Of a stretch of DNA of 64,000 bases, positions 35,131-60,414 are shown one piece after another; position 1 is the stretch's first letter, and the number at the start of each line of letters is the position of its first letter. Under the pieces are notes generated by a model. That model had not been told where the DNA came from. It searched no databases and saw only the letters and a list, made by a program, of their open reading frames with translations. Position numbers and translations under genes: made by a program. Source of the stretch: Planctomycetaceae bacterium (lineage in GTDB: Bacteria > Planctomycetota > PLA2); the NCBI GenBank assembly GCA_011525755.1, contig WYBS01000069.1, positions 5,196 through 69,195 of the forward strand. The letters are read 5' to 3'.

Positions 35131-36087
35131 CTAGTCCCCCGAGCGGTTGAGGACGAGCGAGAACTCGCCCTCGTGCGGCTGGTCGGGGGCCTGGATGTTG
35201 AGGATCAGCTGGAGCGTCCCCGACGCGGGCATCACGCCGTTGAAGTTGGTGCCGATCCGGAAGATCGTGCCCTTCGGGCCCACGCGCGCGGCGAGCGTCC
35301 CGACCATCATCCCGTTCATCATGCCCATGTTCTGGTTGCCGTCGGGCGTGAATGCCTGGCCCCAGTTCGGGAAGAAGATCGTGCCCGTCGCCTGGATCTT
35401 CAGCCGCTCCCCCTTCTCCACCTTGATCTTCGTGTCGAGCCATCCGTTCGGCCAGCAGTTCGTGCCGGCGACCGTGATCTTCCGCGCGTCGTCCGGCGCG
35501 GCGGAGCGGATGCCCTCCACGTCGCCGCGCTTCACGACGAGCGGCCCGAGCTCCTTCACGTTCACCTTGAACGCGTCGAGCTGGATCTGCCCGAGCACGC
35601 TGAAGCGGACCGTATCGACCTGGTCGTCGTCCGTCATGACGACATCGTCGTCCGGATCGAGCTCCTTGAGGATCTCCGCGGCGATGCGCTTCACCTCCGG
35701 ATCGCCGTGCGTCTTCGCGGCCGCGCGCAGCGACGGCACCGCGAACACGCCCTCCTGCACGATCGACGCGCGCGCGTGGTTGCGCCGCTCCGGCTCGGCC
35801 GCGCCGAGGTTCCTCAGCGCCGCCTCCACCTTCGCGAGCCGCTCCGGCTGCGCGCGGCGGCCGAACCGCACGCGCCTTATCTCGACCACCGGCACCGTGA
35901 GATCGCCGAACGCGGTCGCGACCTTCCAGCTCGTGGGCTCGAGCTTCCCGACGAGCACGCTCCCGCTGCGAAGCTCGACGGCGTGGGGCGGGGGCTCGTC
36001 GGGGGCGGGGGCGGGCGCCTCCTCGTCCTGCGCGCGGACCGCGCCGAGGAGGATCAGGGGGGCGAGGGGGGCAAGGAACCGTCTCAT
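35131..36087 (-). CDS. Secreted HEAT-like / PA-IL (LecA)-like lectin-domain protein
   Basis: Start MRRFLAPLAPLILLGAVRAQDE (signal peptide); the ATG overlaps the upstream stop (ATGA). The C-terminal ~120 aa (WLDTKIKVEKGERLKIQATGTIFF...PDGN...GTLAARVG...FRIGTNF..V.PASGTLQLILN) resembles the PA-IL/LecA-like fold pattern. Confidence 0.7.
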   Translation of the reverse strand: MRRFLAPLAPLILLGAVRAQDEEAPAPAPDEPPPHAVELRSGSVLVGKLEPTSWKVATAFGDLTVPVVEIRRVRFGRRAQPERLAKVEAALRNLGAAEPERRNHARASIVQEGVFAVPSLRAAAKTHGDPEVKRIAAEILKELDPDDDVVMTDDDQVDTVRFSVLGQIQLDAFKVNVKELGPLVVKRGDVEGIRSAAPDDARKITVAGTNCWPNGWLDTKIKVEKGERLKIQATGTIFFPNWGQAFTPDGNQNMGMMNGMMVGTLAARVGPKGTIFRIGTNFNGVMPASGTLQLILNIQAPDQPHEGEFSLVLNRSGD

Positions 36088-37277
36088 CGATTCTCCTTCG
36101 GCTCCTCGGGCCTCCCGTCTGGACCGGGCAGCGGCACGGGGATCTTCTCCGTGGCCTCCTGCGCCCGGGGCCGCTTGTCCAGCGCGACCTCGATCTCGAT
36201 CTCCTTGCCCTCGCGGGACACCTTGAGCTTCACCGTGTCGTCCGCCCGCCTGCGGCCGATCTCGAACCGGAGCCCGAACGCGTGCGGGACCGGGGCGCCG
36301 TCCACCGCGAGGACCAGGTCGCCCTTCCGGAGCCCCGCCTTTGCGGCGGCCGTCTCCGGGACGATGTCGGTGATCAGCGCGCCCGGCCCGGGCCGGTCCT
36401 GGTCCGTCGTGACGCCGAGGAACGCGGCCTCGAGCTCGACACCTTCCTTCCCGAGCCGGCGGATGAGCGCCTGCGGGTCGGGGATCGGGGCCACGAAGCC
36501 GATGCCCGAGTCGTACCAGTTCGGGTTCGCGGCCTCGCCCCCCGCGCCGAGGGGCACGATGATGCCGTAGACGCGCCCCTCGAGGTCCACGAGCGGGCCG
36601 CCGTAGTTCGAGGGCGACGTCGCGGCGTCCGTCTGGAGCGCGTTGCCCTCGATCCGGTTCTTCGCGGAGATGATCCCGTACTTCACGTCGGCGAGCCGGT
36701 CGAGCGCGCGGCCGACCGCGAAGGCCCAGGCGCCCACGGCCACGTCCTGCGGGTCGAGGAAGGTCGCGGGCGGGAGTCCCCCGCGCTCGATCTTCAGCAG
36801 CGCGAGCCCGGCCGCGCGGTCGATGCCGAGAAGCTTCGCGGCCGTCGTTTTCCCGTCCGCCGTCGTCACGGTGACGACGGTCGGGTTGCTCTCGAAGTTC
36901 CACGCGGAGGTCACGACGTAGCCGTCCGCGGAGAGGATCACGCCGGTCGTCGGCCCCTCCGCCTTCTGGAACCCGGGCAGCGCGAGCATCTTCTTGAACT
37001 CGTCGCCGAAGCGAGGCGTGCGACCCTCGGGCGCCGGTTCCTCCTCCTCCTTCGGCTCGCCCTCCTTGGGCGCGTCCTTCTCGTCGCGCGGCCGCGCGGG
37101 CACGGTCATCTTCTCGCCGGGGCTCCCGGGGAGGTCCGCGGGGCGCACGCCGCCGACGGTCTCGATCGTCACGACCGAGGCGTCGACGGCGCGGAGCGCG
37201 TTCTCGATCGCGACCTCGAGGGCGAGGATCTCGTCCGGGTTCTCGGGGGCGAGGAGGAGCAGGAGCGCGAGGATCAC
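36084..37277 (-). CDS. HtrA-like trypsin-fold + PDZ protein, catalytic triad lost (pseudo-protease 2)
   Basis: GTG start overlaps the upstream stop (GTGA). Aligned by eye to the intact paralog: His site TSAWNF (W for H), Asp site AAGLALLKI (G for D), Ser site SNYGGPL (Y for S). PDZ-like C-terminus (GALITDIVPETAAAKAGLRKGDLVLAVDG). Confidence 0.8.
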   Translation of the reverse strand: MILALLLLLAPENPDEILALEVAIENALRAVDASVVTIETVGGVRPADLPGSPGEKMTVPARPRDEKDAPKEGEPKEEEEPAPEGRTPRFGDEFKKMLALPGFQKAEGPTTGVILSADGYVVTSAWNFESNPTVVTVTTADGKTTAAKLLGIDRAAGLALLKIERGGLPPATFLDPQDVAVGAWAFAVGRALDRLADVKYGIISAKNRIEGNALQTDAATSPSNYGGPLVDLEGRVYGIIVPLGAGGEAANPNWYDSGIGFVAPIPDPQALIRRLGKEGVELEAAFLGVTTDQDRPGPGALITDIVPETAAAKAGLRKGDLVLAVDGAPVPHAFGLRFEIGRRRADDTVKLKVSREGKEIEIEVALDKRPRAQEATEKIPVPLPGPDGRPEEPKENR

Positions 37278-38311
37278 GGCTTTGCCTCCAGTTTCACGGC
37301 GATCACCTTCACCTCGGCCTTGCGCTTGATCGTCAGCTGCGCGGTCTCGCCCGCGCGGTACTTGGCCATCATCTTGTCGAACGTCTTCCAGTTCTTCACC
37401 GCGGTCCGGTCGATCTTCAGCACGAGGTCGTCGGGAAGGACCCCGGCCCGGGCCGCCGGCGAACCCGGCGCGACGCGGTCGACGTAGGCGGGGGTCGCGA
37501 GGTTGATCCCGGCCCGGAGGACCGTGATCCCGTGATAGCCGGGTTCCCCGGGCCCCTCCGCATCCTCTTCCGTGTCGCCCGACCCGGTGTAGATCCTGCC
37601 CGCGTCCGGCCGCGCGACCGTGTCCTCGAGGAAGGGCTTCAGGTCGTCGATCGGGATCGCGTAGTGGAGCTGGACGTTCGTCTCCCTGCTCTCGACGAGC
37701 GTGCCGCTGATGCCGATCACCTCGCCTTCGAGGTTCACGAGCGGCCCGCCGTACACGCCGGGGTTGTTCATCGCGTCGTGGAGGATCACGTCGCCCGGGT
37801 AGTCGAAGTCGTCGGAGAGCCCGGCGCGCATCGAGGGCCTCGTGATCGCGCTCACGACGCCGAGGTTCACCGCGCACGGCTCGCGCCCCTCGGCGACGCG
37901 GTAGGCGTTGCCGACGAGGAGCACGAACTGGCCCCTTCGCACCTTGTCCGACTCGCCGAGCTTCGCCGCGGGGAACTTCTCGCCCGGGTCGCCCATGAGC
38001 CGCAGCAGCACCATCTTCGACTTCCGGTCGTAGCGGACGATCTCCGCCATGCAGCGTCGGCCGTCGTCGAGGTGGCACTTGATCTGCGGCGCCTCGTCGA
38101 GCGTGACGGAGCCGCGCGTGAGGACGAGGCCGCTCTCGTGGACGATCACGCCGGTCATGTAGCCGAAGACGCCGCGGAAGCCCTTGACGCCGAACACCTT
38201 GACGACGGAGGGCTGGACGGCCTTGACCGCGGCGTCGATGCGCGGGTTGCGCGCCTCGGGGGCCGCGACCGCCAGCGTGGCGAGGAGGAGGAGGGGCGCC
38301 GTGGACCTCAT
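37274..38311 (-). CDS. HtrA-like trypsin-fold + PDZ protein, catalytic triad lost (pseudo-protease 1)
   Basis: Signal peptide MRSTAPLLLLATLAVAAPEA. His site LTRGSVT (S for H), Asp site SKMVLLRL (K for D), Ser site PGVYGGPL (Y for S). PDZ-like C-terminus (VDRVAPGSPAARAGVLPDDLVLKIDR). Confidence 0.8.
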   Translation of the reverse strand: MRSTAPLLLLATLAVAAPEARNPRIDAAVKAVQPSVVKVFGVKGFRGVFGYMTGVIVHESGLVLTRGSVTLDEAPQIKCHLDDGRRCMAEIVRYDRKSKMVLLRLMGDPGEKFPAAKLGESDKVRRGQFVLLVGNAYRVAEGREPCAVNLGVVSAITRPSMRAGLSDDFDYPGDVILHDAMNNPGVYGGPLVNLEGEVIGISGTLVESRETNVQLHYAIPIDDLKPFLEDTVARPDAGRIYTGSGDTEEDAEGPGEPGYHGITVLRAGINLATPAYVDRVAPGSPAARAGVLPDDLVLKIDRTAVKNWKTFDKMMAKYRAGETAQLTIKRKAEVKVIAVKLEAKP

Positions 38312-39927
38312 CCCTTCTGCACCCCCGTGTAGGCGATCGTCTGGAGGAGCTTCTCCTTCTCGCGGTCCCAGATCGTCACCTTGTACGGCCGCAGGAGGCC
38401 GTTCGCCTCGCGCCAGTCGTCGCAGACGAGCGAGATCCAGCGCGCCCAGTTCCGGGAGTAGACGTCGAGGCGCCGCAGGAGCCCCGTGTCGAGGTGGACG
38501 AAGTAGACGCGCTCGACGCCTTCCTTCGTCTTCGCCTCGATGCGGTCGACCGTGTCGTGGCCGACGAGCGCGCCGCCCGTGAAGTCGACCGTCGCGAAAC
38601 GCATCCGGCCGTCCTCGCCGAGGAGATCGTTCCACGCGGCCACGCGCTCGAGCATGTCCTTCGCGAGGTCGGGGTCGATCTCCCCTTCCCCGTCCCGGCC
38701 GCCCCCGGCGGTCGCCTCGCGGACGCGGCCGCCCGCCGCCACGGTCACGCGCCCCTCGGCGTAGGCCTCCTTCAGCGCGACAGGCTCGCGCCCCTCGACC
38801 GTGAGCGTCCCCTCGCGCGTCTCCGCGCCGATCGGCTGCATCGTCGCGCGGGCAGCGGCGAAGGTCCGGTCGATCTCCATGTCGAGGTAGGTGCGGGGCG
38901 GCTTCTTCATCGCCTTCCCCCGCTCGTCGACGAGCGGGATCCCGTCGAGCGTGAGCCGGTACTCGCTCTCGGTCCACTTGCCGTCCTCGAACCGCGCCGC
39001 CTTGAGCGAGATGCGACGCCCCTTGGGCTCTACCGCGATCAGGCGGGAGAACTGGTTCACCTCGGTGATCCGCTCGCCCATGAACTCCACGAGCGCGTCC
39101 CCGATCTGGATCCCCGCGTCGTGCGCGCAGCCGGGAGCGAGGAGCTTGTCGAAGGTGACGCGCACGCCGCCCGGCCACTCGGGGTCGTCGATCGAGCGCA
39201 CCGTCGCGTTGAGCGTGCCGTGCTCGACGATCTGGCCCGCGCGCATGTCCGGCAGGCAGCGCTTGATCTGGTTCGCGCTGATCGCGTAGCCGACGCCGAT
39301 GTTCACGCGGCCGCGCTCGCGGAGCGACACGCGCCCGTTGATCCCCACGACCTCGCCCCGGAAGTTGAAGAGCGGGCCGCCGCTGTTGCCGGGGTTGATC
39401 GATGCGTCGGTCTGGATGCAGTCGGGGTAGAGGAGCGTGCCGCGCATCGAGCCCGGCTGGTAGCGGTTGATGCCGCTCACGACGCCGAGCGTGATCGTCG
39501 GGCTGAAGTCGGTCGCGAGGAGGAAGGGGTTCCCCATCGCGTAGACCCAGTCCCCCTGGCGCAGCGCGTCGGAGTCGCCGAGCGGGGCGAAGGCCCACTC
39601 CCGCGTCTCCTTGAGGCGCAGCAGGGAGAGGTCGCCCGACGGGTCCACGCCGAGGACGACCGCCTCGTGGATGCGGGCGTCGTTGAGCCCGATCCGCATC
39701 TCGTTCTCGAGCTCGGTCACGTGGAAGTTCGAGAGGACGAGGCCGTCCTTCGTGATGATGACCCCCGAGCCACCGCCCGGCCCGCGGAAGACGGCGCACA
39801 CCGCCGGCGCGAGCCTCGCCGCGAGCTCGATGCGCCCCCTCTCGAGCGCCCGCGCCGTGGCGAGCGCGTCGTCGGCGGCGTCGAGGCCTGCCGCGAGGAA
39901 CGGTAGGAGGAGAAGCACCCTTCGCAT
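38308..39927 (-). CDS. HtrA/DegP-family serine protease with PDZ and an extra C-terminal domain (triad intact)
   Basis: 539 aa with a signal peptide. SNFHV (His), GDLSLLRL (Asp) and NPGNSGGPL (Ser) are all present. A PDZ-like region follows, then ~200 aa of unknown C-terminal domain. Confidence 0.9.
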   Translation of the reverse strand: MRRVLLLLPFLAAGLDAADDALATARALERGRIELAARLAPAVCAVFRGPGGGSGVIITKDGLVLSNFHVTELENEMRIGLNDARIHEAVVLGVDPSGDLSLLRLKETREWAFAPLGDSDALRQGDWVYAMGNPFLLATDFSPTITLGVVSGINRYQPGSMRGTLLYPDCIQTDASINPGNSGGPLFNFRGEVVGINGRVSLRERGRVNIGVGYAISANQIKRCLPDMRAGQIVEHGTLNATVRSIDDPEWPGGVRVTFDKLLAPGCAHDAGIQIGDALVEFMGERITEVNQFSRLIAVEPKGRRISLKAARFEDGKWTESEYRLTLDGIPLVDERGKAMKKPPRTYLDMEIDRTFAAARATMQPIGAETREGTLTVEGREPVALKEAYAEGRVTVAAGGRVREATAGGGRDGEGEIDPDLAKDMLERVAAWNDLLGEDGRMRFATVDFTGGALVGHDTVDRIEAKTKEGVERVYFVHLDTGLLRRLDVYSRNWARWISLVCDDWREANGLLRPYKVTIWDREKEKLLQTIAYTGVQKG

Positions 39928-39977: not shown

Positions 39978-41177
39978 CTATTTTCCACCCGGCGGGCTTG
40001 CCATGGCGCTGAAAACGCGCGCCTCGGCCCAGTCGCAGAAGTCGGACACGTAGGAATCGCCCGGGGCGGTCTCGAGGACCAGCCGGTCGACCCCCTTCAC
40101 GTCCAGACGCACCGCCTCGGGGGGCTCCCCCTTGCGGCGCCGGATCTCGGCGAGCACCTTGCCGTCGCCCGTGACCCGGAAGACCGCGTCCCCCTCGGCC
40201 CCCGCGGCGTCGTCGATCCCGCAGCGGGCGTAGAAGGTCTCCCAACGCCCCCCGAGCACGTACTCGAGCCTCGTGTAGGCGAGCGTGCCGAGGCCGCGCT
40301 CGTAGGCCCGCGCCCCGAGCCGGATGGGGCCGCCGAGCGCCATGCCGTCCCGCCTGTAGGACGTCGGCTGGCCGAGGAGCGTCGTCTGCCTGACGTCGAT
40401 CGGCTCGAAGTCCGAGAGGTGGGCCATGTGGTCGCCCAGGAATTCGAGCCGGTCCACGTGGTCCCGCACGACCTTGATCCCGCCACCCTCGACCGTCGTC
40501 TCGGTGATCCGCTCGAGCGGCAGCGTGACGCGCTCGCCCCCGGCGATGTGGACGCGGACGCGCACGCCCGGGGGCACCGTGCGCTCGCGGTCGGGCGTCC
40601 GGACGAAGCCGTACACGCGCGCGAACTCGATCTCCCGCCGCTGGTCCTCGACGCGCGCCACGAGCGCCGCCTCGCCGAGCTCGAGGACGCGCGCCGGCAC
40701 GGGGAACGGCTTCGTGTCGCGCTGGATGACGATCGAGTCGCGCCCCTTCTCGAGCTCCCGGTCGAAGACCTCGCCGTAGGAGGCCTGGAGCGCGCCGAGG
40801 AGGCGGCCGAAGCGGACGGCACGCACGGCGTCGAGGGGCACGGCGAGGCCGAGGACGACCGGGCTGTCGAGCCGGACCTCCTCGCCGGCGCCGGTCACCG
40901 CGCCGCGGAGGCGGTCGCCGCCGTGCAGGTGGAGGTTCATGGGGCCGTCGGCGCCGGGCGCCCGCTTCGCGGCGACCGCGGTCGCGAGGACGAGTTTCGT
41001 GACCGGGATCCGCTGCGGCTCGCCGTCCTTCACGCGGACGACGGCGGTATCGGACTCGACGGAGACGAGCGCCCCGTCGATCGCGCTGCCGTCGACGAGG
41101 ACGACCTTCCCGTCCGCGGAGGCGATCGCCGCGGCGAGGAGGACCGCCGCAGCCGCCCGGAAGGCCCCGGAGCCCAT
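39978..41177 (-). CDS. Secreted protein with C-terminal NPCBM (NEW2) carbohydrate-binding-like module
   Basis: Signal peptide MGSGAFRAAAAVLLAAAIASADG. C-terminus GARAYERGLGTLAYTRLEYVLGGRWETFYARCGIDDAAGAEGDAVFRVTGDGKVL...LVLETAPGDSYVSDFCDWAEARV follows the NPCBM pattern (G..Y.KGLG.H..S...Y.L.....F...VGIDD.....G.V.F.V..DG..L....DH.DWA.A). Confidence 0.8.
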   Translation of the reverse strand: MGSGAFRAAAAVLLAAAIASADGKVVLVDGSAIDGALVSVESDTAVVRVKDGEPQRIPVTKLVLATAVAAKRAPGADGPMNLHLHGGDRLRGAVTGAGEEVRLDSPVVLGLAVPLDAVRAVRFGRLLGALQASYGEVFDRELEKGRDSIVIQRDTKPFPVPARVLELGEAALVARVEDQRREIEFARVYGFVRTPDRERTVPPGVRVRVHIAGGERVTLPLERITETTVEGGGIKVVRDHVDRLEFLGDHMAHLSDFEPIDVRQTTLLGQPTSYRRDGMALGGPIRLGARAYERGLGTLAYTRLEYVLGGRWETFYARCGIDDAAGAEGDAVFRVTGDGKVLAEIRRRKGEPPEAVRLDVKGVDRLVLETAPGDSYVSDFCDWAEARVFSAMASPPGGK

Positions 41178-42235
41178 CACCGGTCGCCGGCGGGCTCCGT
41201 GACGCGCTTCCCCTCGGCGAGCGCCTTGTTGTACTGCTCGAGGAGCTCGCGGTACCGATCGGGGAACTGCTCCTTCAGGGCCTGGAGGACCGCCTCGCGC
41301 TCCTTGTCCCGCATCTCGCCCCACGCCTCGCCCGCCTTCTTCTTGGGGTTCGGGCGAAGGTCGCCGACGCGGCTCGCGCCGGGCGCGACGCTCGAGTTGT
41401 TCGCGGGGCCCGAGGGCTGCTGGTTGCCGCGCGGCTGGCCTCCGCCCCCGCCGCCCCCCTTGCCCTGGCCCTCCTGCTGCTCGGCCTTCTTGATGAGCTC
41501 CTCGATGATGTCGACGATCTCCTTCTGCTTCTGCTGCGTCGGCTCCCCGGTGTCGCCGCCCTCGATCTTCTTCGCGACGTGGTTCATGCGGCCGGCGAGG
41601 TCGTAGAGCGGGCTCTCCCACTCCTGCACGAGCTCGTTCTTGAGCTGCTCCATCGCCTGCTTGTAGCGCTCGGGGGCGTCGGGGTAGTCCTTCAGGAACG
41701 CGTTCGCGGCGGAGATCGCCTTCTCCTTCTCGCGCTCCTGGCCGAGGCAGACGACGAGGTAGAAGGCCGCGTCGACGTCGCAGCCCGCGAAGCGGAACTC
41801 GTTGAGCACCTGCGTGAACGCCTGCCCCGCCTCCTCGTACCGCTCGCGGTTCATCTGCGCGAGTGCGTAGCGGAAGGTCGAGTAGCCGCGCACGTACTCG
41901 TCGGCGCTCTTCATGAGCGCCTCGAAGCGCTCGACCGCGGCGCCGTACCGTTCGCTCGTGAGGAGCGCGTCGGCGCGCTGGTAGCCGGGGTTCATGAGGA
42001 GGAGCGCCTGGTGGATGCAGTCGAACTCGCCGCCGAGGAGGCCGCTCTCGCGCAGCTTCAGGACGTCCTTCTTCATCGCCTCGGCGAGCGTCGCGTCGGC
42101 CTCGATCCTCGAGAAGAAGCGGTCGATCTTTCTCTGCCGGAGCTTCTCGACGAGCTCCGAGCCCGCGGGGGCGTCGGCGCGCGCCGTGGCGAGGAGGAGG
42201 AGGGGCGCGGGGAGGAGGAGGAGGATTCTTCTCAC
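41177..42235 (-). CDS. Secreted TPR/helical protein with Gly7 low-complexity tract (BatC/BatE-like position)
   Basis: 352 aa. Signal peptide MRRILLLLPAPLLLLATARADA, TPR-like helices, then QEGQGKGGGGGGGQPRGNQQP. The C-terminal motif WGEMRDKEREAVLQALKEQFPDRYRELLEQYNKALAE recurs, as I recall, in MoxR/vWA-cluster proteins of Planctomycetes-like genomes. Confidence 0.75.
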   Translation of the reverse strand: MRRILLLLPAPLLLLATARADAPAGSELVEKLRQRKIDRFFSRIEADATLAEAMKKDVLKLRESGLLGGEFDCIHQALLLMNPGYQRADALLTSERYGAAVERFEALMKSADEYVRGYSTFRYALAQMNRERYEEAGQAFTQVLNEFRFAGCDVDAAFYLVVCLGQEREKEKAISAANAFLKDYPDAPERYKQAMEQLKNELVQEWESPLYDLAGRMNHVAKKIEGGDTGEPTQQKQKEIVDIIEELIKKAEQQEGQGKGGGGGGGQPRGNQQPSGPANNSSVAPGASRVGDLRPNPKKKAGEAWGEMRDKEREAVLQALKEQFPDRYRELLEQYNKALAEGKRVTEPAGDR

Positions 42236-42237
42236 GG

Positions 42238-51449: not shown

Positions 51450-52368
51450 CGCCGGCGCGTGCTCCCGCGCACGACCCGGGCGCGCGCCGCGAGGAATCCC
51501 GCGAGCGACTTGTCGAGCCGGTCGCCGGTCGAGAGCAGCATGTAGTCGATACGCATCGAGGCGCACATGCGCCGCACCTGCTCGAGGAACTCGCGCAGGA
51601 TCTCGAGGTAGCCGTCGCGCAGCGAGCGCGGCTCCGCGATCAGGTCGGGCAGCTGCTCGAGCCCGACGAACCGCGTGTTGTCCTCGAAGGGGAAGGTGAG
51701 CTCGGTCTCGTCGAGGACGTGGAAGAGCACCACCTCGTGCCGCTTGTGGCGGAGGTGCTTCAGCCCGTTTTCGATCGTCTCGAGCGGCGCGAAGAGGTCG
51801 GAGAAGATCGCGATGAGCGAGCGGCGCCCGGCGGCGTCGGCGAAGTCGCGAAGCGGCGCCGCGAAGTCGGTCTTCCGCTGCGGCTTCATCGGCTCGACCA
51901 TCGAGAGGATGTTCTGCAGGCTGTGCCAGTTGCTCGACACCGGCACGGCGCCCTGGAGGCGGTCGTCGAAGAGGCGCAGGCCGACCGCGTCGCGCTGCTT
52001 CAGCAGCAGGAACGCGATCGCCGCCGCCGCCGTCGCGCCGTACTCGAACTTGGAGAGCGGCTGCGTGCCGAACCGCATCGACTCGCTGATGTCGAGCAGC
52101 AGGTGGCAGCGGAGGTTCGTCTCCTCCTCGTACTGCTTGATGTAGTAGCGGTCGGCCCGGCCCCAGAGCTTCCAGTCGATGTGGCGGATGTCGTCGCCGG
52201 GCGCATACTCCCGGTGCTCCGCGAACTCGACGCTGTACCCCTTCCGCGGCGACTTGTGGAGGCCGGAGACGTACCCCTCCACGACCTGCCGCGCGCGCAG
52301 GTCGAGGCGCGAGATCTCCGCCAGCACCGCCGGATCGAGGAACCGGCTCTGCCCCCCCGGGTGCGCCA

Positions 52369-52369
<1 letters not shown>
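51446..52369 (-). CDS. DUF58 domain protein (MoxR partner)
   Basis: Start MAHPGGQSRFLDPAVLAEI overlaps the MoxR stop. G.H.S...G.S.EF.EHREY.PGDD.R.IDW...AR......K.Y.EE is the DUF58 signature. Confidence 0.9.
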
Positions 52370-53403
<1,034 letters not shown>

Positions 53404-53468: not shown

Positions 53469-54500
53469 TCACCGAGACAGGATGGGCAGGTGGTTGAAGG
53501 GGATCTGCAGGATCAGGAGCGCGAGCGAGGTCCCGTAGGCGAGACCGACGCTGTCCCCGCTCCACGACCCGTTGCCCTGCTGGGTGCGCAGGAGCACGCG
53601 CTGGATCGCGGGGTAGTACTCCCCCCAGAACTTGTCCCCCTTCTGCCACGAGGCCTGGGACATGTAGAGCTGCGTGTAGAAGTAATGCCCGTCGTTGCTG
53701 ACGGTTGGCTTGCAGTGTTTCCAGGCGTATTCGAACGCCTTCGTCGCCATCGGGCTGTCGTACTGGCCCGCGTTGTAGAGCACGGCGCAGGCCGCGGCGG
53801 TGATCGCGGGGCGGCTGCCGCGCGAGCGGACGCTGTACGAGATGCCCCCGTCGGGGTTCTGCGACCGCTCGATGTACTTGATGGCCCGGTCGATCGTCTC
53901 CTTGGGAACGAGGATCCCGGCGTTCCGGCAGCCCCGCAGCGCCTGCACCTGCGTGACCGTGACCGACCCCTCGTCGCCGTTCGAGTCCGGGGTGTAGAGC
54001 CACCCGCCGTCGTTCGACTGCGACTTCGACGTGAGCACGATGCCGCGCTCGAGCGCGACGCGGATGCGCCGCTGCCGGTCGAGGTCCTCCTCCATCCCGT
54101 ACGCCTGGGAGAGGAAGAGCATCGCGAAGCCGTGGCCGTACATCGACCGCTGCTCCTCGGCGGGCGCCGCGAAGAGGCCGTTCGGCTGCTGCTGCGAGAG
54201 GCAGAAGTTCACGGCGCGGCGCACGTGCTTCGCGTAGGGCCCGCGCTCGGGCGTCGAGCCGCCCGCGACGAGCGCGAGGCCGCCGAGCGAACTCATCACG
54301 ACCGGATAGGTGCCGAAGCCGCCCGCGGACCGCCACGAGCCGTCCTTGTTCTGCTCGCGCGCGAGGAACTCGAGCCCGCGCTCGATCGCGCGCATGGTGT
54401 CGCTCGTGACGCCCGGCGGGAGCGTGGGCACCGCCGCGTCCTGCCCCCGCGACAAGGGCGCGAGAAGCCCGGCGAGGAGGAGGAGCGCGCACACCCGCAT
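53469..54500 (-). CDS. Secreted prenyltransferase/squalene-oxidase-repeat (alpha/alpha-toroid, terpenoid-cyclase-fold) protein
   Basis: Start MRVCALLLLAGLLAPLSRGQD. Repeated Q..DGSW / Q..NG / DGGW / NPDGG / GNGSW motifs (EQNKDGSWRS, QQQPNGLF, SNDGGWLY, QNPDGGISY, QQGNGSWSG). Confidence 0.85.
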   Translation of the reverse strand: MRVCALLLLAGLLAPLSRGQDAAVPTLPPGVTSDTMRAIERGLEFLAREQNKDGSWRSAGGFGTYPVVMSSLGGLALVAGGSTPERGPYAKHVRRAVNFCLSQQQPNGLFAAPAEEQRSMYGHGFAMLFLSQAYGMEEDLDRQRRIRVALERGIVLTSKSQSNDGGWLYTPDSNGDEGSVTVTQVQALRGCRNAGILVPKETIDRAIKYIERSQNPDGGISYSVRSRGSRPAITAAACAVLYNAGQYDSPMATKAFEYAWKHCKPTVSNDGHYFYTQLYMSQASWQKGDKFWGEYYPAIQRVLLRTQQGNGSWSGDSVGLAYGTSLALLILQIPFNHLPILSR

Positions 54501-54579: not shown

Positions 54580-57500
54580 CTAGCCTCCCCCCTTCGCGGG
54601 CGCCGCGAGGCGCGCGGCGCCCCACGGGTGGCCCACGACGAGGCCGCCCCCCGCCGCCGCGATCCCGACGCCCGCGTCGAGGCGCGTCGCCCCCTCGGCG
54701 CGGAAGTCCATGGCGGCGGTCTCCTTCCCCGACGGGTCGACGAACAGGGACTGGGCCCCGCGCGACGACTCCGACGCGTCGCGGTCGAAGAGGCGCACGT
54801 GCACCCCGCGCGGAAGCGCCGCGGCGACCGCCACGTGGTGCTCGGTGAGGAGCGGCGGCGCGAAGGCCGTGCCGCGCACCGCGTAGTCGTACGCGAGCAC
54901 GTCCATGGCCTTCCCGTCGATCCGGTAGAGCCGGCCCCCCTCGTCCTCGAGCCCCGGGCTGTGGGTGAGGACGAAGATCCGCGACGCGTCCCGGGCCACG
55001 TGGAACGCGCGCAGCAGCTCGGGGCCGCGGCGGGCCTCCACGCGGCCGCCCTCGAGGTCCACGAAGCGGAGGTTCTCCGTCCCGCTCGAGCCGTCGTGGT
55101 AGACGAGCACGGAGCCGTCGGCGAGGAGCGGTGCCGCGTAGCCGGTCGAGAGCGGGAACCGCTTGCGGGTCTCCGGGCTGCGGATGTCGAGGACCTCGAG
55201 CTGGCCGTTCCCGCCCTCCGCCTCGGCCGAGCTCGCGACGAACATGCGGCCGAGCCGGTCGACGAGCGGGGGCGCGAGCAGCGCGGTCCGGTCGTCGCGG
55301 CGCCACGTGCAGACGGCGTCGCCGTTCGCGGCCTCGTAGACGCGGACCCAGCCTGGCCTCGAGAATCCGACGACGACGAAGTCGCCGAAGGCCGTCGGCG
55401 GGCCGACCGCCACCTGCCCCTGCGTGTCCGCGCCGACCCACACGACGTCGCCGGTCCCCATGTGGACCGCCTCGACGCCCGCGCGCGGGTGGACGCGCAC
55501 GACCACGTTCTCCGCGAGGAGGTAGGCGGGGAGCGGGTGCGCACGGAGCGCGAACCCCTTCGCGGCGGCGTCGCGCAGGTCCTTCCGCAGGAGGTCGATC
55601 GAGGCCTGCCCCTCCTCCCGCGCGACAGCGTCGTTGCCGGGGTAGCGCCAGAGCACCTCCCCGCTCGTCGCGTGGACGCGCATGAGCCCCGAGACGTCGC
55701 CGAGCACGACGTCGTCGCCGCGCCGCGCCGCGAAGCGGGCGGCGGCGACGGCCCCGGCCGCGGCGGCGGTCGCCGGCTCGCCGGCGGGCCCCGGCGCGAT
55801 GCCCGTGCGGCTCGGGTTGGCGACGGTCCAGCGGACCTTCCCCGAGGCATCGACGGCCATGTACTCCGCCGCGTTGGCGAAGAGCGCGAGGCCCTCGGGG
55901 AGCCCGCCCTCGACGGCCACGGGGGCGGCGCCCTCGATCGCCATCGGCGCCGCGGAGAGGGGGAAGCGCAGGCGTGGCGCGGCCGGCGCGACGGTCGCGC
56001 CGGCGAGGAGCGCATCCACCTCGGCGAGGAGCGCCGCGTGCTCGCGCCGCCCCTGCTCGTCGAGCCGGGAAAGGGCCTCGACCCACTCCCGCCGCGCGGC
56101 GTCCGGCTTGCCTTGCCGCGCCTCGATCCGCGCGAGCCGCAGGTGCGCCGCCGCCACGCGCGGATGCGCCGGGTGCTTCCTCGCGAAGTCCTTGAGCTCG
56201 GCCTCGGCGTCCGCGACGCGGCCCGCCTCCTCGTGGAGGTGCGCGAGCGCGAAGCGCGCCTCCTCGGCCGGCGGCTCGTCGCCGTACCGTTCGAGGATCG
56301 CCTTCAGGCCCTCCGCGTCCTTCCGCGCGACCGCGGCCTCGATGCGGCCGCGCACGGTCTCGGCGAAGGCGGCGGCGAAGGGCGGACTCTCCGACCGGAG
56401 CTGGTCGCGGAGCGCGGCGCCCGCCGCGGTGCCGTCGACGACACGGCCGTCGCGGACGACGCGCAGGTGGCCGAACTCGTCCGCGAAGCGCTCGAGGGCC
56501 GCGAGGGCCTGCTGCGCGTTGCCGAGGCGGCCGAGGGCCTCCGCGCGGAGGAGCGCGATCTGCGCGTCGTACGGGTGCGGCCCCCCGGCCCCCCCCTGAT
56601 TCCCGCGCAGCGGCGCGACGATTTTCTCCGCCTCGTCGAGCGCGCCGAGGTCCTTCCGCTCGCGGGCGATGGCGAAGAGGTTCTCGATCGCGTACCTGCG
56701 CGCGAGGTGCGTCGCGTCGTCCCCCGCCGCCTCGACCGCCTTCGCGAGGTCCTCGCGTGCCTGGTCGCGCCGCTTCGTCACGCCCGCGAGCGCGAGCAGG
56801 CCCCGTTCGAGCAGCAGCGCCGCGCGGTCCGCGTCCGGCCGGTTCAGCGCCGCGTCCACGCGGGCCGCCTCCGCCTCGTAGGTGGTGAAGCACATGATCT
56901 CGCTGCCGTTCGCGGCGACGAGCTTCCCGTCGAAGCTCAGCAGGTTCCCGAGCTTCTCCACCTCGAAGACGAGCGGCTCCGCCGGGACCCCGGTCTTCAG
57001 GTCGAAGCGCTCGACCTCCGAGCGGAGGGCGTTCTCGTGGCGGGTCGGCACGTGGACGTACCGCTCGCCGACGAAGCCGCGCCCGTAGCGGAACGCCCGG
57101 AGCGGGCTCGACCAGGCGATCTCCCCCTTCCGGAGGTCGATGGCGAAGACCTTGTCGCCGCCGAGGTAGAGGAGCCCCTCCTTGACGCCCAGGACGTACG
57201 ACGCCGAGAGCAGCGCCCGCTTCGGGATCGACCAGGCGATGCGGCCGGTCTCGGCGTCGAGCGCGAGCATCTCGTTCGCGTCGGCCGGCGCTGCGATCAC
57301 CTTCCCCTCGGCGACCACCGGGTCGCCGAACGCGAAGCCCTGCTTGATCTTGCCCGCGCGGAATCCGCGCCGCCCGCCCTGCGCCCCCTCGAAGCCGCGC
57401 TGGTACCGCGTGAGCCACTTCACGCGGCCGGGCGGGAGGGCGTCGACCGCCGCGACCACCCCGGCCTGCGTGATCGCGTAGACGGTCCCGCCGGCCATCG

Positions 57501-59187
57501 CGACCGCGGCGCCGCGGGGGAGCTGGCGGTTCACCTCGTCCTCGTAGTGCAGGAGCGTCCGGAACCGGACGCGCCCGGTCGCGACGTCGAATGCCCAGAG
57601 GGACACGAACCCGGGCTCGCCCCCCTCGCGCTCCGAGGCGACCGTGTAGAGGGTGCCGCCGGACGCGACGCCGGGGCCGAGGAAGGCCGCGCCGCGGTGG
57701 AGCTGGTAGTCCTTCTGCCAGGCGTCGAGGACCTGCGGGTCGGCCTTGACGGCCTCGCTCGCGTAGTCGCCGTTCCAGGCCCAGATCTGCTTCCCGGACG
57801 CGCGGGCGTGCGCGATGAGGGTGTTCGGCTGGTTCGGGACGGCCGCCGCCTCGCCGCGCAGCTCGTTCGGCGCCCCGAGCCAGTCCGTCGCGAGGATCAT
57901 GTCGCCCGCCGCGAGGAGGCGCGCCGCGCCGTAGTCCAGGTGCTCGTAGATGGCCTCGAGGACGCGCGAGTCCTTGACCGCGTCCTGCGTCCCGGGCCGG
58001 ACGCTCTCGAGCGGGCAGCGGCAGGTGGGGTCGTCCGTCGGAAGGGGATCCTTCGAGACCACCACCTCGAGGAGGTGGACGAAGGAGCCCGAGCCCACGC
58101 GTCGCGCGACGACGTCCCGGCCGTCCCGGTAGAAGAGCAGCCCCTCATGGACGATCGGGAACGTGGTCGGGTACGGGGCGACGTGCTCTCTCGCGGGCAC
58201 CGGCACGCGCAGCTCCGGCGTGGGAGACGGCTGCCGGTCGTGGCGGAGGACCATCCATGCGTCCCCGAAGCTGCAGACAGTGAGGCGCGTGTCCCGCTCG
58301 TGGAGCGGGAACGACCAGAACGGCTTTCTCGGGAGGTCCTCGGGGAGGTCGCCGGCCGTCCGGTTCCGCGCGGCGTTGCCGCCGGCGATCGGCCAGTCCG
58401 TGTCGGCGCGAGCCTCGCCCGCGCCGCGCCGGAAGAGCGGATGGTCCTTCACCTCGGCGGCCGCCACCGGCTTCCCCTCGACGCTGACCGTCGCCCCCAG
58501 ATGCTCCGAGGCGAGCCTTGCGAGCAGCACCGTGACCTGCTCCGCGTCGCCGATGCGCGCCGCGCAGTAGGCGGACTTCGCGAGCACGAGCGCGAGGTCC
58601 CGGTCCGTGTCCTTCGGGTAGACGTCGACGAGGCGGCGGCCGAGCGCGAGCGCCTCGTAGAAGCGACCGAGCGCCAGGTTCAGGTCGAGGGCCTTCTCGA
58701 GCGCGTCGTCGCCGACGGTGCTCGAGAGGTAGCTGTCGTGGACCTTCGCGTACGCGACGAGGCGATCCTCGACGTCCGCCGTGGCGTCCGCGGCCGCGAG
58801 GAGCTGGCGCGCGGTCGCATCGTGGACGTCGCGGTAGGCGCGGAGCCCCTCCGGCGGCAGCCGCGCGAGCTCGAGGAGGCAGAGCTCGCGCGCGGGGTAG
58901 TACGTGCGACCGTCCTCGCTGTAGACGGCCGACTGGAGGACCTCGTCCTTGACGTCGGGGAAGACCTCCGGGTCCCCGATCACGACCCGGTGGAGGACGT
59001 CGACGACCTTGTCCCACTGCTCCGCCTTCGCGAGCTCCTGCCCGCGCGAGAGGTAGCGGGGGATCGCGTCGTCCGTGAGGAGCCGCACCTCGCCGTCGGC
59101 CGCCGCGGGCCCCGCGGGCGCGAGGGCGAGGAGGAGGAGCAGCCGGCGCACCCTCCTTAGGACGTCGTCTCGCCCCCGGCCGTTCAT
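54580..59187 (-). CDS. Giant secreted TPR + PQQ-like (BamB-like) beta-propeller repeat protein (1535 aa)
   Basis: One clean ORF with a signal-like N-terminus (LLLLLALAPAGPAAADG). TPR-like helical blocks alternate with propeller blades bearing the recurring motifs G..(I/V)W and A.D..TG...W (e.g. ALDAETGRIAWS, AIDLRKGEIAWS, VHATSGEVLWRY). The 1616-aa plus-strand ORF opposite it is an Arg-rich shadow. Confidence 0.85.
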   Translation of the reverse strand: MNGRGRDDVLRRVRRLLLLLALAPAGPAAADGEVRLLTDDAIPRYLSRGQELAKAEQWDKVVDVLHRVVIGDPEVFPDVKDEVLQSAVYSEDGRTYYPARELCLLELARLPPEGLRAYRDVHDATARQLLAAADATADVEDRLVAYAKVHDSYLSSTVGDDALEKALDLNLALGRFYEALALGRRLVDVYPKDTDRDLALVLAKSAYCAARIGDAEQVTVLLARLASEHLGATVSVEGKPVAAAEVKDHPLFRRGAGEARADTDWPIAGGNAARNRTAGDLPEDLPRKPFWSFPLHERDTRLTVCSFGDAWMVLRHDRQPSPTPELRVPVPAREHVAPYPTTFPIVHEGLLFYRDGRDVVARRVGSGSFVHLLEVVVSKDPLPTDDPTCRCPLESVRPGTQDAVKDSRVLEAIYEHLDYGAARLLAAGDMILATDWLGAPNELRGEAAAVPNQPNTLIAHARASGKQIWAWNGDYASEAVKADPQVLDAWQKDYQLHRGAAFLGPGVASGGTLYTVASEREGGEPGFVSLWAFDVATGRVRFRTLLHYEDEVNRQLPRGAAVAMAGGTVYAITQAGVVAAVDALPPGRVKWLTRYQRGFEGAQGGRRGFRAGKIKQGFAFGDPVVAEGKVIAAPADANEMLALDAETGRIAWSIPKRALLSASYVLGVKEGLLYLGGDKVFAIDLRKGEIAWSSPLRAFRYGRGFVGERYVHVPTRHENALRSEVERFDLKTGVPAEPLVFEVEKLGNLLSFDGKLVAANGSEIMCFTTYEAEAARVDAALNRPDADRAALLLERGLLALAGVTKRRDQAREDLAKAVEAAGDDATHLARRYAIENLFAIARERKDLGALDEAEKIVAPLRGNQGGAGGPHPYDAQIALLRAEALGRLGNAQQALAALERFADEFGHLRVVRDGRVVDGTAAGAALRDQLRSESPPFAAAFAETVRGRIEAAVARKDAEGLKAILERYGDEPPAEEARFALAHLHEEAGRVADAEAELKDFARKHPAHPRVAAAHLRLARIEARQGKPDAARREWVEALSRLDEQGRREHAALLAEVDALLAGATVAPAAPRLRFPLSAAPMAIEGAAPVAVEGGLPEGLALFANAAEYMAVDASGKVRWTVANPSRTGIAPGPAGEPATAAAAGAVAAARFAARRGDDVVLGDVSGLMRVHATSGEVLWRYPGNDAVAREEGQASIDLLRKDLRDAAAKGFALRAHPLPAYLLAENVVVRVHPRAGVEAVHMGTGDVVWVGADTQGQVAVGPPTAFGDFVVVGFSRPGWVRVYEAANGDAVCTWRRDDRTALLAPPLVDRLGRMFVASSAEAEGGNGQLEVLDIRSPETRKRFPLSTGYAAPLLADGSVLVYHDGSSGTENLRFVDLEGGRVEARRGPELLRAFHVARDASRIFVLTHSPGLEDEGGRLYRIDGKAMDVLAYDYAVRGTAFAPPLLTEHHVAVAAALPRGVHVRLFDRDASESSRGAQSLFVDPSGKETAAMDFRAEGATRLDAGVGIAAAGGGLVVGHPWGAARLAAPAKGGG

Positions 59188-59199
59188 CGGTTCTAAAGA

Positions 59200-60414
59200 T
59201 TAACCGCCCCGCGGTCCCCGCCGTGTCACGATCATCACGATCGGTGCGCACGCGAGGAGCGCCGTCGCCGCCATGGCCGCGGCGAGGCCCATGCTCCCGA
59301 GCGCCCAGCCGGCGAAGACGGCGAGCGGGCTGAACATCAGCCGGCACGCGAGCGAGTCGAGGGAGAGGATCGTCGCCCGCCTTCGGGCCGACGGCACGCG
59401 CCGGTTGAGGAGGAACCGGGTCAGCGGCGGGTAGAGGCCGAAGGCGGCCCCCTGGACGCCGAAGAGCACGGCGGCGAAGGGCGCCCTGAGGATCGCGAGC
59501 AGGAGGAACATGAAGAGGAGGGCCCCGGGAACCAGGTAGACGACCAGCCGCTCTGCCCCGGCGATAAGGCGGTGGGCGAAGAGCGCCGCCAGCGCGCCCG
59601 CGAGGTTCATCCCGGCGAGGATCGTCCCGTAGAGGTCGGGGGGGATCCCCTGCGCATCGAGGACCGGGTGGAAGAAGAGGACGACCGCGGCCCTGAGGAG
59701 CGCGAAGACCCCGATGCTATAGAGGATCACGCGAGCGACGCCGGGGAGCGTGACGACGTCCCGGATCGCCCCGACGGTGATCTCCCGGGCGGACTGGCGC
59801 TCGCCCCGCGGCGGCTCCCGGAACAGCAGGCCGACCCCCGCGCCGACGATGGAGAGGCCCCCCGCGATCCAGTAGGCGAGGACCGGGTTCCCATCGACGA
59901 CGAGGAGCCGGTCCGAGAGGGGGTACCCGATCACGGTCGCCATGAGCCACGACGCCTGCGCCGCGCCTTCTGCCCGGGGGTATTGCGCCTCCTGCCGCTC
60001 GGCCGCGAGCGAGTCGTAGAGGAGCGCGGAGTCCGCCCCGCTGACGAAGGCTGTCCCGAGGCCGAAGAGCACCTCCCCGGCCGCGAAGGAGGGGAAGTCC
60101 GTCGCGACGGCGAAGAGGAAGCAGCCGAGGCCGTTGACCGCCGCGCCGAGGACGAGGATCGCCTTCCTGCCGAAGCGGTCCGCGAGCACGCCGGTCGGCA
60201 CCTCCGCGGCCACGACGACGAGGTAGTAGAGGCCCTGGAGGAGGCCGTACTCGGCCTGCGAGAGGCCCCGCACCTTCGTGATGAAGAGCTGGATGTAGGG
60301 GGCGAAGAGCAGCAGCCGCGTGAGGACGCGGTAGAGGAGGAAGAGGCGGAAGTTGCGCAGGGTCTCTCGGGGGGGCTCCGGGGGCCGTCCCCCGCGCCCC
60401 CTCATATCAAGCAC
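59200..60414 (-). CDS. MFS transporter
   Basis: 404 aa, ~12 hydrophobic helices. MFS loop motif GVLADRFGRK. Start is GTG 60414 or ATG 60405. The stop is 12 nt upstream of the PQQ-repeat gene's start. Confidence 0.85.
   Translation of the reverse strand: MLDMRGRGGRPPEPPRETLRNFRLFLLYRVLTRLLLFAPYIQLFITKVRGLSQAEYGLLQGLYYLVVVAAEVPTGVLADRFGRKAILVLGAAVNGLGCFLFAVATDFPSFAAGEVLFGLGTAFVSGADSALLYDSLAAERQEAQYPRAEGAAQASWLMATVIGYPLSDRLLVVDGNPVLAYWIAGGLSIVGAGVGLLFREPPRGERQSAREITVGAIRDVVTLPGVARVILYSIGVFALLRAAVVLFFHPVLDAQGIPPDLYGTILAGMNLAGALAALFAHRLIAGAERLVVYLVPGALLFMFLLLAILRAPFAAVLFGVQGAAFGLYPPLTRFLLNRRVPSARRRATILSLDSLACRLMFSPLAVFAGWALGSMGLAAAMAATALLACAPIVMIVTRRGPRGG

Follow-up and report, generated by a model that had tools for sequence, protein, structure and literature searches.

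The window, a 64,000-nucleotide stretch of a Planctomycetaceae bacterium genome (assembly GCA_011525755.1, contig WYBS01000069.1, positions 5,196 to 69,195 of the forward strand), carries a long array of genes at positions 35131 to 60414, all on the minus strand and numbered here g01 to g15 in the direction of transcription. Sequence comparisons indicate that g02 to g14 are a 13-gene supercluster that is widespread in Planctomycetota and is built of two linked modules. Module A comprises g02 to g07, which encode a propeller protein, a toroid protein, a MoxR ATPase, a DUF58 protein, and two vWA proteins, and module B comprises g08 to g14, which encode a DUF4175-related protein, a charged helical protein, a TPR protein, an NPCBM protein, and three HtrA-like proteins; the two modules are found together, rearranged, or apart. 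The array is real and its conservation is strong; it extends, in a form that has apparently not been described, a known and functionally unresolved type of system, the MoxR/DUF58/vWA (Bat) cluster. We give an even chance to the interpretation that g02 to g14 encode one cell envelope system, in which an inner-membrane-anchored periplasmic complex would be serviced by a cytoplasmic MoxR/DUF58 motor. A literature search, with most subscription journals outside its coverage, retrieved the Bat core and no description of the extended planctomycete cluster, of the g08 family or DUF4175, of the pair of pseudo-HtrA proteins, or of Bat genes in planctomycetes. The initial sequence-only reading of the window, which had drawn attention to the array, likewise knew of no functional description of the extended architecture.

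Conservation of the gene cluster in Planctomycetota

Neighborhood conservation was assessed in a scan seeded with g08, in which one genome per GTDB species was searched with one peptide pattern. This gave 56 loci with flanks of up to 10 kb (individual loci are designated by L numbers), in which the 15 window proteins were searched by tblastn; the counts refer to loci with a g08 less than 50% identical (26 to 34%) to that of the window. The sampling is biased by the seed, and nearly all loci come from metagenome-assembled genomes. Upstream of g08, the genes g03-g04-g05-g06-g07 lie in this order in 25 of the 36 loci with enough upstream sequence, and in a further 6 of these 36, as a variant of this order, a g02-like gene separates g06 from g07. 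Downstream, g09-g10-g11-g12-g13-g14 follow in 20 of the 28 loci with enough downstream sequence. Where both flanks are covered, all twelve genes from g03 to g14 are in order in 11 of 22 loci. Median identities in the distant loci are 63% for g04, 53% for g03, 50% for g05, 46% for g12, 40% for g14, and 28 to 34% for g06 to g11 and g13, making the toroid protein g03 the second most conserved member. Protein sizes are preserved across lineages.

Scans from other seeds gave a similar picture. In loci seeded with g14, the genes from g07 or g08 to g14 are in order in all five, three of which are distant (38 to 42% identical to g14). A metagenome scan seeded with g03 yielded 38 distant loci, in 30 of which a g02-like gene (a g15-like gene in two loci) lies directly upstream of g03. 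Moreover, a hidden Markov model built from the truncated upstream open reading frames (ORFs) of the g08-seeded loci matches residues 971 to 1407 of g02 (E = 5.7e-9). The carriers belong to Phycisphaerae, Pirellulaceae, Planctomycetales, and unclassified Planctomycetota. The array could have proved to be a co-conserved MoxR-DUF58-BatA-vWA block with freely varying flanks; in the scans seeded with the DUF4175-related and pseudo-HtrA genes, g02 to g14 stay in order. Such maintenance of gene order between lineages at 25 to 35% protein identity indicates that the array is more than a chance arrangement.

Two observations concern individual loci. Loci L021, L029, and L039, titled “uncultured Anaerolineales bacterium,” carry the full cluster at Planctomycetota-like identities, and the label is probably unreliable. 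In L104 (10001 to 20972), the genes after g03 run g10-g09-g08-g07-g06 on the opposite strand, an inverted and still adjacent arrangement.

Gene calls and junctions

The window has a guanine-plus-cytosine (GC) content of 72%, which produces long ORFs in all six frames, and the gene calls rest on codon-position GC. The 15 genes were delimited from ORF lists and a plot of codon-position GC, and all 15 translate cleanly. GC at third codon positions is 0.93 to 1.00 in the called frame of each array gene, and the frame shifts exactly at the gene boundaries, in every case in the phase of the minus strand. The array is bordered by a convergent plus-strand gene with a CarboxypepD_reg domain (32962 to 34947) and by a divergent plus-strand LysR gene (60427 to 61332). 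Gaps of 12 nucleotides (nt) separate g01 and g02, of 79 nt g02 and g03, of 65 nt g03 and g04, of 1 nt g07 and g08, of 170 nt g08 and g09, of 2 nt g09 and g10, and of 50 nt g11 and g12. The junctions g04/g05 (MoxR/DUF58) and g10/g11 (TPR/NPCBM) are 1-nt overlaps of the form TGATG, and 4-nt overlaps (ATGA or GTGA) join DUF58 to BatA and BatA to vWA and occur at three junctions of the HtrA block. The 15 co-directional genes and all junctions given by the sequence-only reading were reproduced from the coordinates and by direct reading, and its frame for g03 (53469 to 54500) is correct.

Between 34.5 and 61.5 kb, a scan with promoter consensus sequences found no promoter-like sites, and terminator-like sites were no more numerous than in shuffled controls; at 72% GC, both results are uninformative on operon structure. 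Folding of the 170-nt spacer between g08 and g09 revealed no special structure (z = 0.28), and an Rfam search of the region gave zero matches.

Proteins of module A

Domain labels were checked against Pfam and NCBIfam, and membrane and signal segments were read from hydropathy and the positive-inside rule. The largest protein of the array, g02 (54580 to 59187; 1535 amino acids [aa]), is predicted to be secreted, with a signal-like N-terminal segment, TPR regions (TPR_16/TPR_21), and two BamB-like beta-propeller regions (PQQ_2, E = 1.3e-18). It scores below the cutoffs of the quinoprotein dehydrogenase models PF01011 (21.2 versus 26.7 bits) and TIGR03075 (15 versus 480 bits) and of the BamB equivalog TIGR03300 (35 versus 285 bits), and its sequence suggests a repeat scaffold that includes TPR regions.

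The adjoining g03 (53469 to 54500; 343 aa) encodes a predicted secreted alpha/alpha-toroid protein that matches SQHop_cyclase_C (E = 6e-12) and, weakly, Prenyltrans and TED. It has five QW-like repeats, and its cyclase match covers the repeats of the C-terminal domain only. Motif reading of the sequence showed both the DxDD cyclase motif and the thioester motif to be absent, and the protein stays below the cutoff of the cyclase model TIGR01507 (44 versus 431 bits), so it is not a full-length two-domain cyclase. It looks like a binding module rather than a cyclase.

The putative motor is encoded by the next two genes. Gene g04 (52369 to 53403) specifies a MoxR-type AAA+ ATPase of 344 aa (AAA_3, E = 9e-65, 217 bits; AAA_lid_2, E = 1e-16) in which the P-loop GVPGLAKT and the Walker B motif ILADE were read directly; it also passes the Pfam bpMoxR cutoff (41 versus 27 bits). 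Directly downstream, g05 (51446 to 52369) specifies a DUF58 protein of 307 aa (E = 1e-43) with a vWA-like domain, whose metal ion-dependent adhesion site (MIDAS), of the form DxSxS, is invariant in 30/30 orthologs. Neither protein has a hydrophobic, signal, or membrane segment by hydropathy, and both are predicted to be cytoplasmic. The statement that every non-ATPase member of the array is secreted or membrane anchored fails for this DUF58 protein.

Genes g06 (49191 to 51449; 752 aa) and g07 (46726 to 49194; 822 aa) encode two related vWA proteins. A BatA domain is found in g06 (E = 1e-17; TIGR02226, 75.8 bits against a cutoff of 23; VWA_2, 27.2 bits against a cutoff of 27), the MIDAS of which (DDSxS) is invariant in 38/38 orthologs, with one S-to-T change at the first Ser. 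The second protein, g07, has zero Pfam matches, including no direct VWA match, and searches of PDB sequences with g07, g09, and g15 returned nothing useful. Alignment of the g07 and g06 families with hhalign (99.7%, E = 5.5e-27, 647 columns) nevertheless identifies them as full-length paralogs, the DxSxS MIDAS of g07 is invariant in 47/47 orthologs, and there is a weak match to the vWA protein PTMP1. The vWA label that g07 had received on first reading is therefore upheld by paralogy and by the invariant motif despite the lack of a Pfam match. Direct Pfam or NCBIfam support was likewise obtained for the labels MFS, PQQ, toroid, MoxR, DUF58, BatA, NPCBM, and HtrA (three proteins), with that for TPR in g10 being weak.

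Both vWA proteins are predicted to have two N-terminal spans around a positively charged loop, a body of about 640 aa placed in the periplasm, and a C-terminal hydrophobic stretch. In g06, the two spans form the BatA_N anchor, the loop between spans 1 and 2 is rich in Arg as read directly from the sequence, and the C-terminal stretch is a predicted span of an inner membrane protein; in g07, the hydrophobic tail is the predicted third span. Experiments on BB0173, a protein with BatA_N and vWA domains, placed it in the inner membrane and its vWA domain on the periplasmic side (PMC5700661), and the topology predicted for g06 and g07 is the one shown for that protein.

The DUF4175-related protein g08

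The gene that links the two modules, g08 (44574 to 46724), encodes a membrane protein of 716 aa. It had been labeled DUF4175, and a search with PF13779 gave no match at E ≤ 1 in g08, in 10 aligned homologs, or in orthologs that carry this name at NCBI or UniRef. The relationship can be traced indirectly. A Rubricoccaceae protein (P0086) passes PF13779 (40.9 bits against a cutoff of 27.3, residues 296 to 477), and the g08 family profile aligns with residues 10 to 705 of this protein from end to end (99.8%, E = 7.9e-28, 669 columns). By this homology, g08 is judged to be a divergent DUF4175 relative; the label stands through P0086, without a direct Pfam match. The neighbors of P0086 in Rubricoccaceae are unrelated and define no wider core.

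An AlphaFold2 model of g08 (predicted local distance difference test [pLDDT] score of 87) shows three N-terminal membrane helices that enclose a helical loop of about 75 aa, followed by three to four Ig-like sandwiches (residues 193 to 511) and a four-helix bundle at the C terminus. The loop of the model is read as cytoplasmic by the positive-inside rule. Foldseek searches with the model returned generic tandem Ig, FN3, and MG arrays only, with TM-scores of at most 0.19, and defined no function. A split alpha2-macroglobulin made up of the g08 sandwiches and the g03 toroid was considered and dropped, there being no thioester motif and no specific match.

The g08 family includes at least 6004 clusters at 50% identity (E ≤ 1e-30) and 15102 representatives at E ≤ 1e-10. 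Its members are mostly full length (700 to 870 aa). Homologs of g08 assign the window to an uncultured lineage of Planctomycetota; the best homolog is 93% identical to g08, and more distant ones (26 to 34%) occur in Phycisphaerae and Pirellulaceae. The family could become a new Pfam family or extend an existing one.

The HtrA trio and the secreted proteins of module B

By sequence, genes g12, g13, and g14 appear to encode three HtrA proteins, one live and two dead, that form a trio of ancient origin. The first, g12 (38308 to 39927; 539 aa), combines a protease domain (Trypsin_2, E = 2e-30) with a PDZ domain (PDZ_6) and a C-terminal extension. Its triad (His69/Asp99/Ser182) is kept as His-Asp-Ser in 21/21 correctly extracted orthologs, and g12 is on this evidence predicted to be a catalytically competent, bona fide DegP/HtrA-type enzyme. 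The other two keep the protease fold and a PDZ domain without a catalytic triad. In g13 (37274 to 38311; 345 aa; Trypsin_2, E = 5e-21; PDZ_2), which overlaps each neighbor by 4 nt, the triad positions are occupied by S/G, by Q/K/L/M, and by P/A/Y/Q (Ser in one), and an intact triad occurs in none of the 23 aligned sequences (window plus orthologs). In g14 (36084 to 37277; 397 aa; Trypsin_2, E = 4e-25; PDZ_2), they are F/W/Y/I, K/R/G, and Y/F, and conservation extends to the degenerate motifs TS(S/T)FNF and PANYGGP. Public databases name relatives of g14 “S1C family serine protease.” Despite such names, the substitutions identify g13 and g14 as pseudoproteases. Since the triad is lost from g13 and g14 in every lineage and the degenerate motifs are conserved, inactivation predates the divergence of the lineages and has been under selection. 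Both genes had already been called dead HtrA on first reading, correctly so, as no aligned ortholog has an intact triad and the inactivation is ancient. Across loci, the three genes are almost always joined by overlaps of 1 to 4 nt or by gaps of a few nucleotides. In L145 (7059 to 10001), the equivalents of g12 and g13 form a single 980-aa ORF, either a real fusion or an indel artifact of a 5x long-read assembly, and this was given no weight.

The remaining genes of module B encode predicted secreted proteins. Gene g09 (42238 to 44403) follows g08 in 40 of 53 distant loci and specifies a highly charged, probably helical protein of 721 aa, with 47% E/K/R/D/Q, 2% aromatic residues, and Gly/Pro-rich linkers. 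It has no Pfam or PDB match; a coiled coil, as had been proposed, is plausible from the composition, which is the sole basis for the label. Gene g10 (41177 to 42235) encodes a TPR protein of 352 aa with a low-complexity C-terminal half. Its TPR_16, YfiO/BamD-like, and YbgF-like matches are all weak and below cutoff (TPR, 26 versus 32.7 bits; BamD equivalog TIGR03302, 30 versus 81 bits), and no SH3 domain was seen. In other loci the gene is colinear and the protein keeps a similar size (about 336 to 354 aa). Gene g11 (39978 to 41177; 399 aa) ends in an NPCBM carbohydrate-binding-type domain (E = 9e-26), which is found at the same position in proteins of 386 to 418 aa in L059, L061, and L143 to L146. 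Signal-like N termini were identified by hydropathy in g02, g03, g09 to g13, and g15. The envelope localization put forward for the array is consistent with hydropathy, with the positive-inside reading, and with the topology of BB0173 (PMC5700661).

Two irregularities were noted around g09. In the relative at 59% identity, an insert of about 3.4 kb between g08 and g09 (L002, 12119 to 15528; L143, 1 to 2560) holds an alpha/beta-hydrolase gene and an opposite-strand vWA gene, so the g08-g09 junction, a 170-nt gap in the window, tolerates insertion. An ORF of 64 to 66 aa lies between the equivalents of g09 and g10 in L145 (4531 to 4731) and L146 (4622 to 4816) and is absent from the window, where the gap is 2 nt.

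Boundaries of the cluster and neighboring genes

At the upstream end, g01 (59200 to 60414) encodes an MFS transporter of 404 aa (MFS_1, E = 3e-27). It lies upstream of g02 in close relatives only (L062, L067, and L068, with 75%, 55%, and 50% identity, respectively), and the gene that precedes g02 in distant loci lies on the opposite strand. In the window, g01 stands back-to-back with the plus-strand LysR gene (60427 to 61332), with 12 nt between the annotated starts; as the two are so close, the true start of g01 is probably further in. From these features, g01 is probably a separate, LysR-controlled transporter unit outside the conserved system.

At the downstream end, g15 (35131 to 36087) encodes a predicted secreted protein of 318 aa with a short helical-repeat segment and a beta-rich C-terminal half. 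It has no Pfam or NCBIfam match, and an AlphaFold2 model from the single sequence is unusable (pLDDT of 36), so that the HEAT-lectin label given on first reading is a putative one. An ortholog follows g14 in L051 (78%) and L143 (43%) only; g15 is absent from L144 and from more than 10 distant loci with 1.4 to 2.3 kb of sequence past g14. In L102 (~4984 to 5900) and L103 (~8984 to 9950), a g15-like gene with 30 to 32% identity along almost the entire gene separates g02 from g03. This distribution marks g15 as a variable accessory gene that appears to move within the cluster. The unit of 15 genes that had been proposed accordingly holds for the 13 genes g02 to g14, with g01 being clade specific (50 to 75% identity) and g15 accessory.

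Beyond g15, the CarboxypepD_reg gene and a gene for a Ser/Thr kinase with an FHA domain (together 31467 to 34947) adjoin the downstream end of the cluster, as they do in the relatives L143 (12345 to 15940) and L144 (12392 to 15835). These neighbors are about 55 to 60% identical in the two relatives, which is plain vertical synteny within the clade. Elsewhere in the window, the plus-strand gene at 76 to 5286 encodes a 1736-aa protein in which a Ser/Thr protein kinase is joined to AAA_16, GAF, Sigma54_activat, and AAA_lid_14 domains; the fusion of a eukaryote-like kinase to a sigma-54 activator is an unusual signaling architecture. A gene for a Dynamin-family GTPase (Dynamin_N, E = 6e-22) is found on the plus strand at 19232 to 20974.

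A proposed envelope system and its alternatives

In the proposed envelope system, g06, g07, and g08 would be stapled into the inner membrane, from which their large bodies would project into the periplasm. The MIDAS sites and the Ig-like and helical parts of these proteins may dock the secreted proteins g02, g03, and g09 to g11 into one periplasmic assembly, which the NPCBM domain of g11 would tie to envelope glycan. A MoxR hexamer could act, via DUF58, on short cytoplasmic loops of g06, g07, and g08 and so assemble or remodel the complex. MoxR/DUF58 would in that case be a maturation factor rather than a structural subunit, which would explain why its genes may lie elsewhere. The HtrA trio is envisaged as a mixed oligomer in which two dead subunits would gate or target the single active one, for confined proteolysis or chaperoning of envelope proteins. 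Gene arrangement lends this scheme some support: g08 travels with either module, and the rearranged yet adjacent forms (type II, described below; g02 between g06 and g07; and the inverted L104) point to selection on proximity rather than mere inheritance. A more far-reaching version, which we think unlikely, would make the 13 genes a Planctomycetota-specific periplasm-organizing apparatus that sets or maintains the unusual membrane architecture and enlarged periplasm of these bacteria, with g06 to g08 and g09 as scaffold, the TPR, propeller, and toroid proteins as adaptors, the NPCBM domain as glycan anchor, assembly by MoxR/DUF58 acting across the membrane, and policing by an obligate HtrA hetero-oligomer of one catalytic and two regulatory, dead subunits.

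Several observations weigh against a single complex. Genes g08 to g14 occur alone among unrelated flanks in L003, L004, and L059, and g03 to g08 occur without g09 to g14 in L006, L014, and L022. The cultured Anatilimnocola aggregata ETAA8 has the order BatA-PQQ/HEAT-x-g07-g08, followed by unrelated opposite-strand genes, with no further part of module B beside it. Downstream of g03, the g03-seeded loci comprise 22 of type I and 13 of type II; in type II (13/36 g03-seeded loci), g03 is followed directly by g06, and neither MoxR nor DUF58 occurs anywhere in the locus, so the motor need not be encoded at the locus and is connected to module B only indirectly. Furthermore, MoxR and DUF58 are cytoplasmic whereas g06 and g07 are predicted to expose their vWA domains to the periplasm, and the usual direct contact between MoxR and vWA therefore cannot apply. 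Coupling across the membrane through cytoplasmic loops is a guess and the weak step of the scheme, the mixed HtrA oligomer is a predicted part, the Foldseek matches of the g08 model are generic Ig-like ones, and we infer one complex from gene order and sequence. Together, the module splits and the type II loci indicate that the membrane and periplasmic genes are the persistent core and that the ATPase pair detaches most readily, the reverse of a scenario in which only MoxR-DUF58-BatA-vWA are conserved. The sequence-only reading had pictured one fused, MoxR-chaperoned block. The genes are indeed kept in order and MoxR is present in most loci, but modules A and B also occur separately, MoxR is missing from about one-third of the g03-seeded loci, and the chaperoning is conjectural.

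The main rival, rather doubtful in our view, is that two or three independent envelope systems are merely frequent neighbors: a Bat-like module for stress or envelope integrity and a periplasmic protease and quality control module (the g08-like, helical, TPR, and NPCBM proteins with the HtrA trio). They would share a compartment, and perhaps regulation, without forming a single complex. The loci in which the modules stand apart (L059, L003, and L004; L006, L014, and L022; Anatilimnocola aggregata) fit this well, and the largest gap in the window (170 nt, g08-g09) falls just inside the boundary between modules A and B. At 25 to 35% identity, the modules nevertheless recur side by side in a variety of gene orders and orientations (types I, II, and III, as well as the inverted L104), which inertia alone is unlikely to produce, and independent systems would not lead one to expect that g08 accompanies either module or that 11 of the 22 fully covered distant loci keep all twelve genes. 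It is quite unlikely that the cluster serves biogenesis and quality control of outer membrane or secreted proteins, with g02 and g10 receiving substrates, the DegP-like trio chaperoning or degrading them, and the vWA proteins acting as docks. The PQQ_2 regions of g02 (annotated as BamB type), the weak matches of g02 to BamB, BamD, and YbgF and of g10 to BamD and YbgF, and the DegP/HtrA type of g12 suggest such a role; the scores, however, are far below cutoffs (35 versus 285 and 30 versus 81 bits) and reflect a shared repeat fold only, the cluster holds no BamA, SurA, or Skp gene, and the vWA, DUF4175-like, toroid, and NPCBM parts have no Bam link.

The mxa cluster (mxaFJGIRSACKLD) combines MoxR, DUF58, and membrane vWA proteins with a periplasmic propeller. 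The cast of module A is the same, and g02 adjoins the MoxR block, so MoxR, DUF58, and the vWA proteins might equip g02 with a metal or cofactor in the way that MxaRSACKL serve methanol dehydrogenase. This is very improbable: g02 fails the quinoprotein models and resembles a repeat scaffold with TPR, type II loci keep g02 without MoxR and DUF58, and module B would be left unexplained. Least credible is a MoxR-vWA-based conflict system directed against phages or competitors, with the protease as effector. It would accord with the bpMoxR score of g04 (41 versus 27 bits) and with MoxR-vWA-beta-propeller ternary systems reported in planctomycetes (PMC7159879), but g04 scores far higher on AAA_3 (217 bits), and the propeller protein g02 is separate and secreted and lacks the fusion to vWA that defines that class (PMC7159879). 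From lineage to lineage, protein architectures and sizes stay the same, in contrast to the effector displacement of conflict systems; the genes are core-like and widespread in the phylum; and PADLOC found nothing beyond one generic protease-domain match. Judged by the features that define BAM-like, Mxa-like, and conflict systems, the cluster belongs to none of them.

Comparison with known systems

Bat clusters (Bacteroides fragilis batI, spirochete BB0170-BB0176, Leptospira bat, and the Riemerella bat operon) share with the array a MoxR ATPase (AAA_3) followed by a DUF58 protein, then a BatA_N-anchored and a second membrane protein of the vWA type. They also include TPR proteins (BatC/BatE-like), to which g10, with its subthreshold TPR matches, is a putative counterpart. 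In the window, these are an AAA_3 MoxR (g04), a DUF58 protein encoded directly downstream (g05), a BatA_N vWA protein with a MIDAS (g06), and a second vWA protein (g07). At E ≤ 0.01, none of the 15 proteins matched the BatD family. With 750 to 820 aa, the vWA proteins of the array are larger than BB0173 (about 330 aa) and carry a large additional body, and the array adds the propeller giant, the toroid, the DUF4175-related, charged helical, and NPCBM proteins, and the HtrA trio, all conserved across Planctomycetota. The molecular function of Bat proteins is unresolved, with stress, virulence, and envelope phenotypes reported (PMC11834572, PMC3557215); the aerotolerance or stress phenotype is disputed even in the known systems (PMC3557215).

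MoxR/DUF58/vWA clusters are among the most widespread bacterial gene sets without a molecular function, and in one whole phylum a Bat-like core sits within a stable group of many more envelope proteins. Candidate clients or partners for such a core are the propeller and toroid proteins, the DUF4175-like protein, and the three HtrA proteins. The two pseudo-HtrA paralogs form an ancient family whose members carry active-protease names in public databases, and g08 belongs to a very large family (at least 6004 clusters) without a direct match to any Pfam model. If these proteins do assemble into a single complex, bacteria with an atypical cell plan would possess a trans-envelope machine of a new kind.

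A four-gene operon of Rhizobium leguminosarum, RL3499-RL3502, reportedly encodes MoxR, DUF58, and two large membrane proteins. It resembles the array in combining a MoxR-proper ATPase and DUF58 with large membrane proteins, and unlike the array it is said to have no linked protease, propeller, toroid, or NPCBM genes. According to accounts in papers citing the original study (Vanderlinde 2011, cited in PMC3893208 and PMC5700661), the mutant loses envelope integrity and has an altered cell shape.

Other MoxR and vWA pairs are maturation chaperones, in which the AAA+ ring works via a MIDAS-bearing vWA partner on a client complex (PMC9976466, PMC3893208), and MoxR-vWA with a peptidase has been proposed as a membrane-proximal degradation system (PMC3495828). 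NorQ/NorD, CbbQ/CbbO, RavA/ViaA, and the operon of MoxR, vWA, and a transglutaminase peptidase share with the array a MoxR protein and a MIDAS-bearing vWA partner. In systems of the NorQ/NorD type, however, partner and client are in the compartment of MoxR, whereas here DUF58 alone is predicted to be cytoplasmic. A periplasmic location is expected for the remaining vWA domains, for the protease, and for the probable clients, so any coupling must cross the membrane.

The HtrA trio recalls MamE and MamO of magnetotactic bacteria, an active HtrA protein and a paralog with a degenerate site in one cluster; MamO, a pseudo-HtrA, activates the HtrA protease MamE (PMC4794232). In contrast to that pair, the array has two distinct dead paralogs with one live protein, all bearing PDZ domains, with tight start/stop coupling and no magnetosome context. 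Finally, the MoxR-vWA-beta-propeller ternary systems (Kaur et al. 2020, PMC7159879) have MoxR, vWA, a beta-propeller, and occurrence in planctomycetes in common with the array. In that class, the propeller is fused to vWA within variable, effector-bearing architectures, whereas the planctomycete cluster described here has a separate, putatively secreted propeller within a stable architecture.

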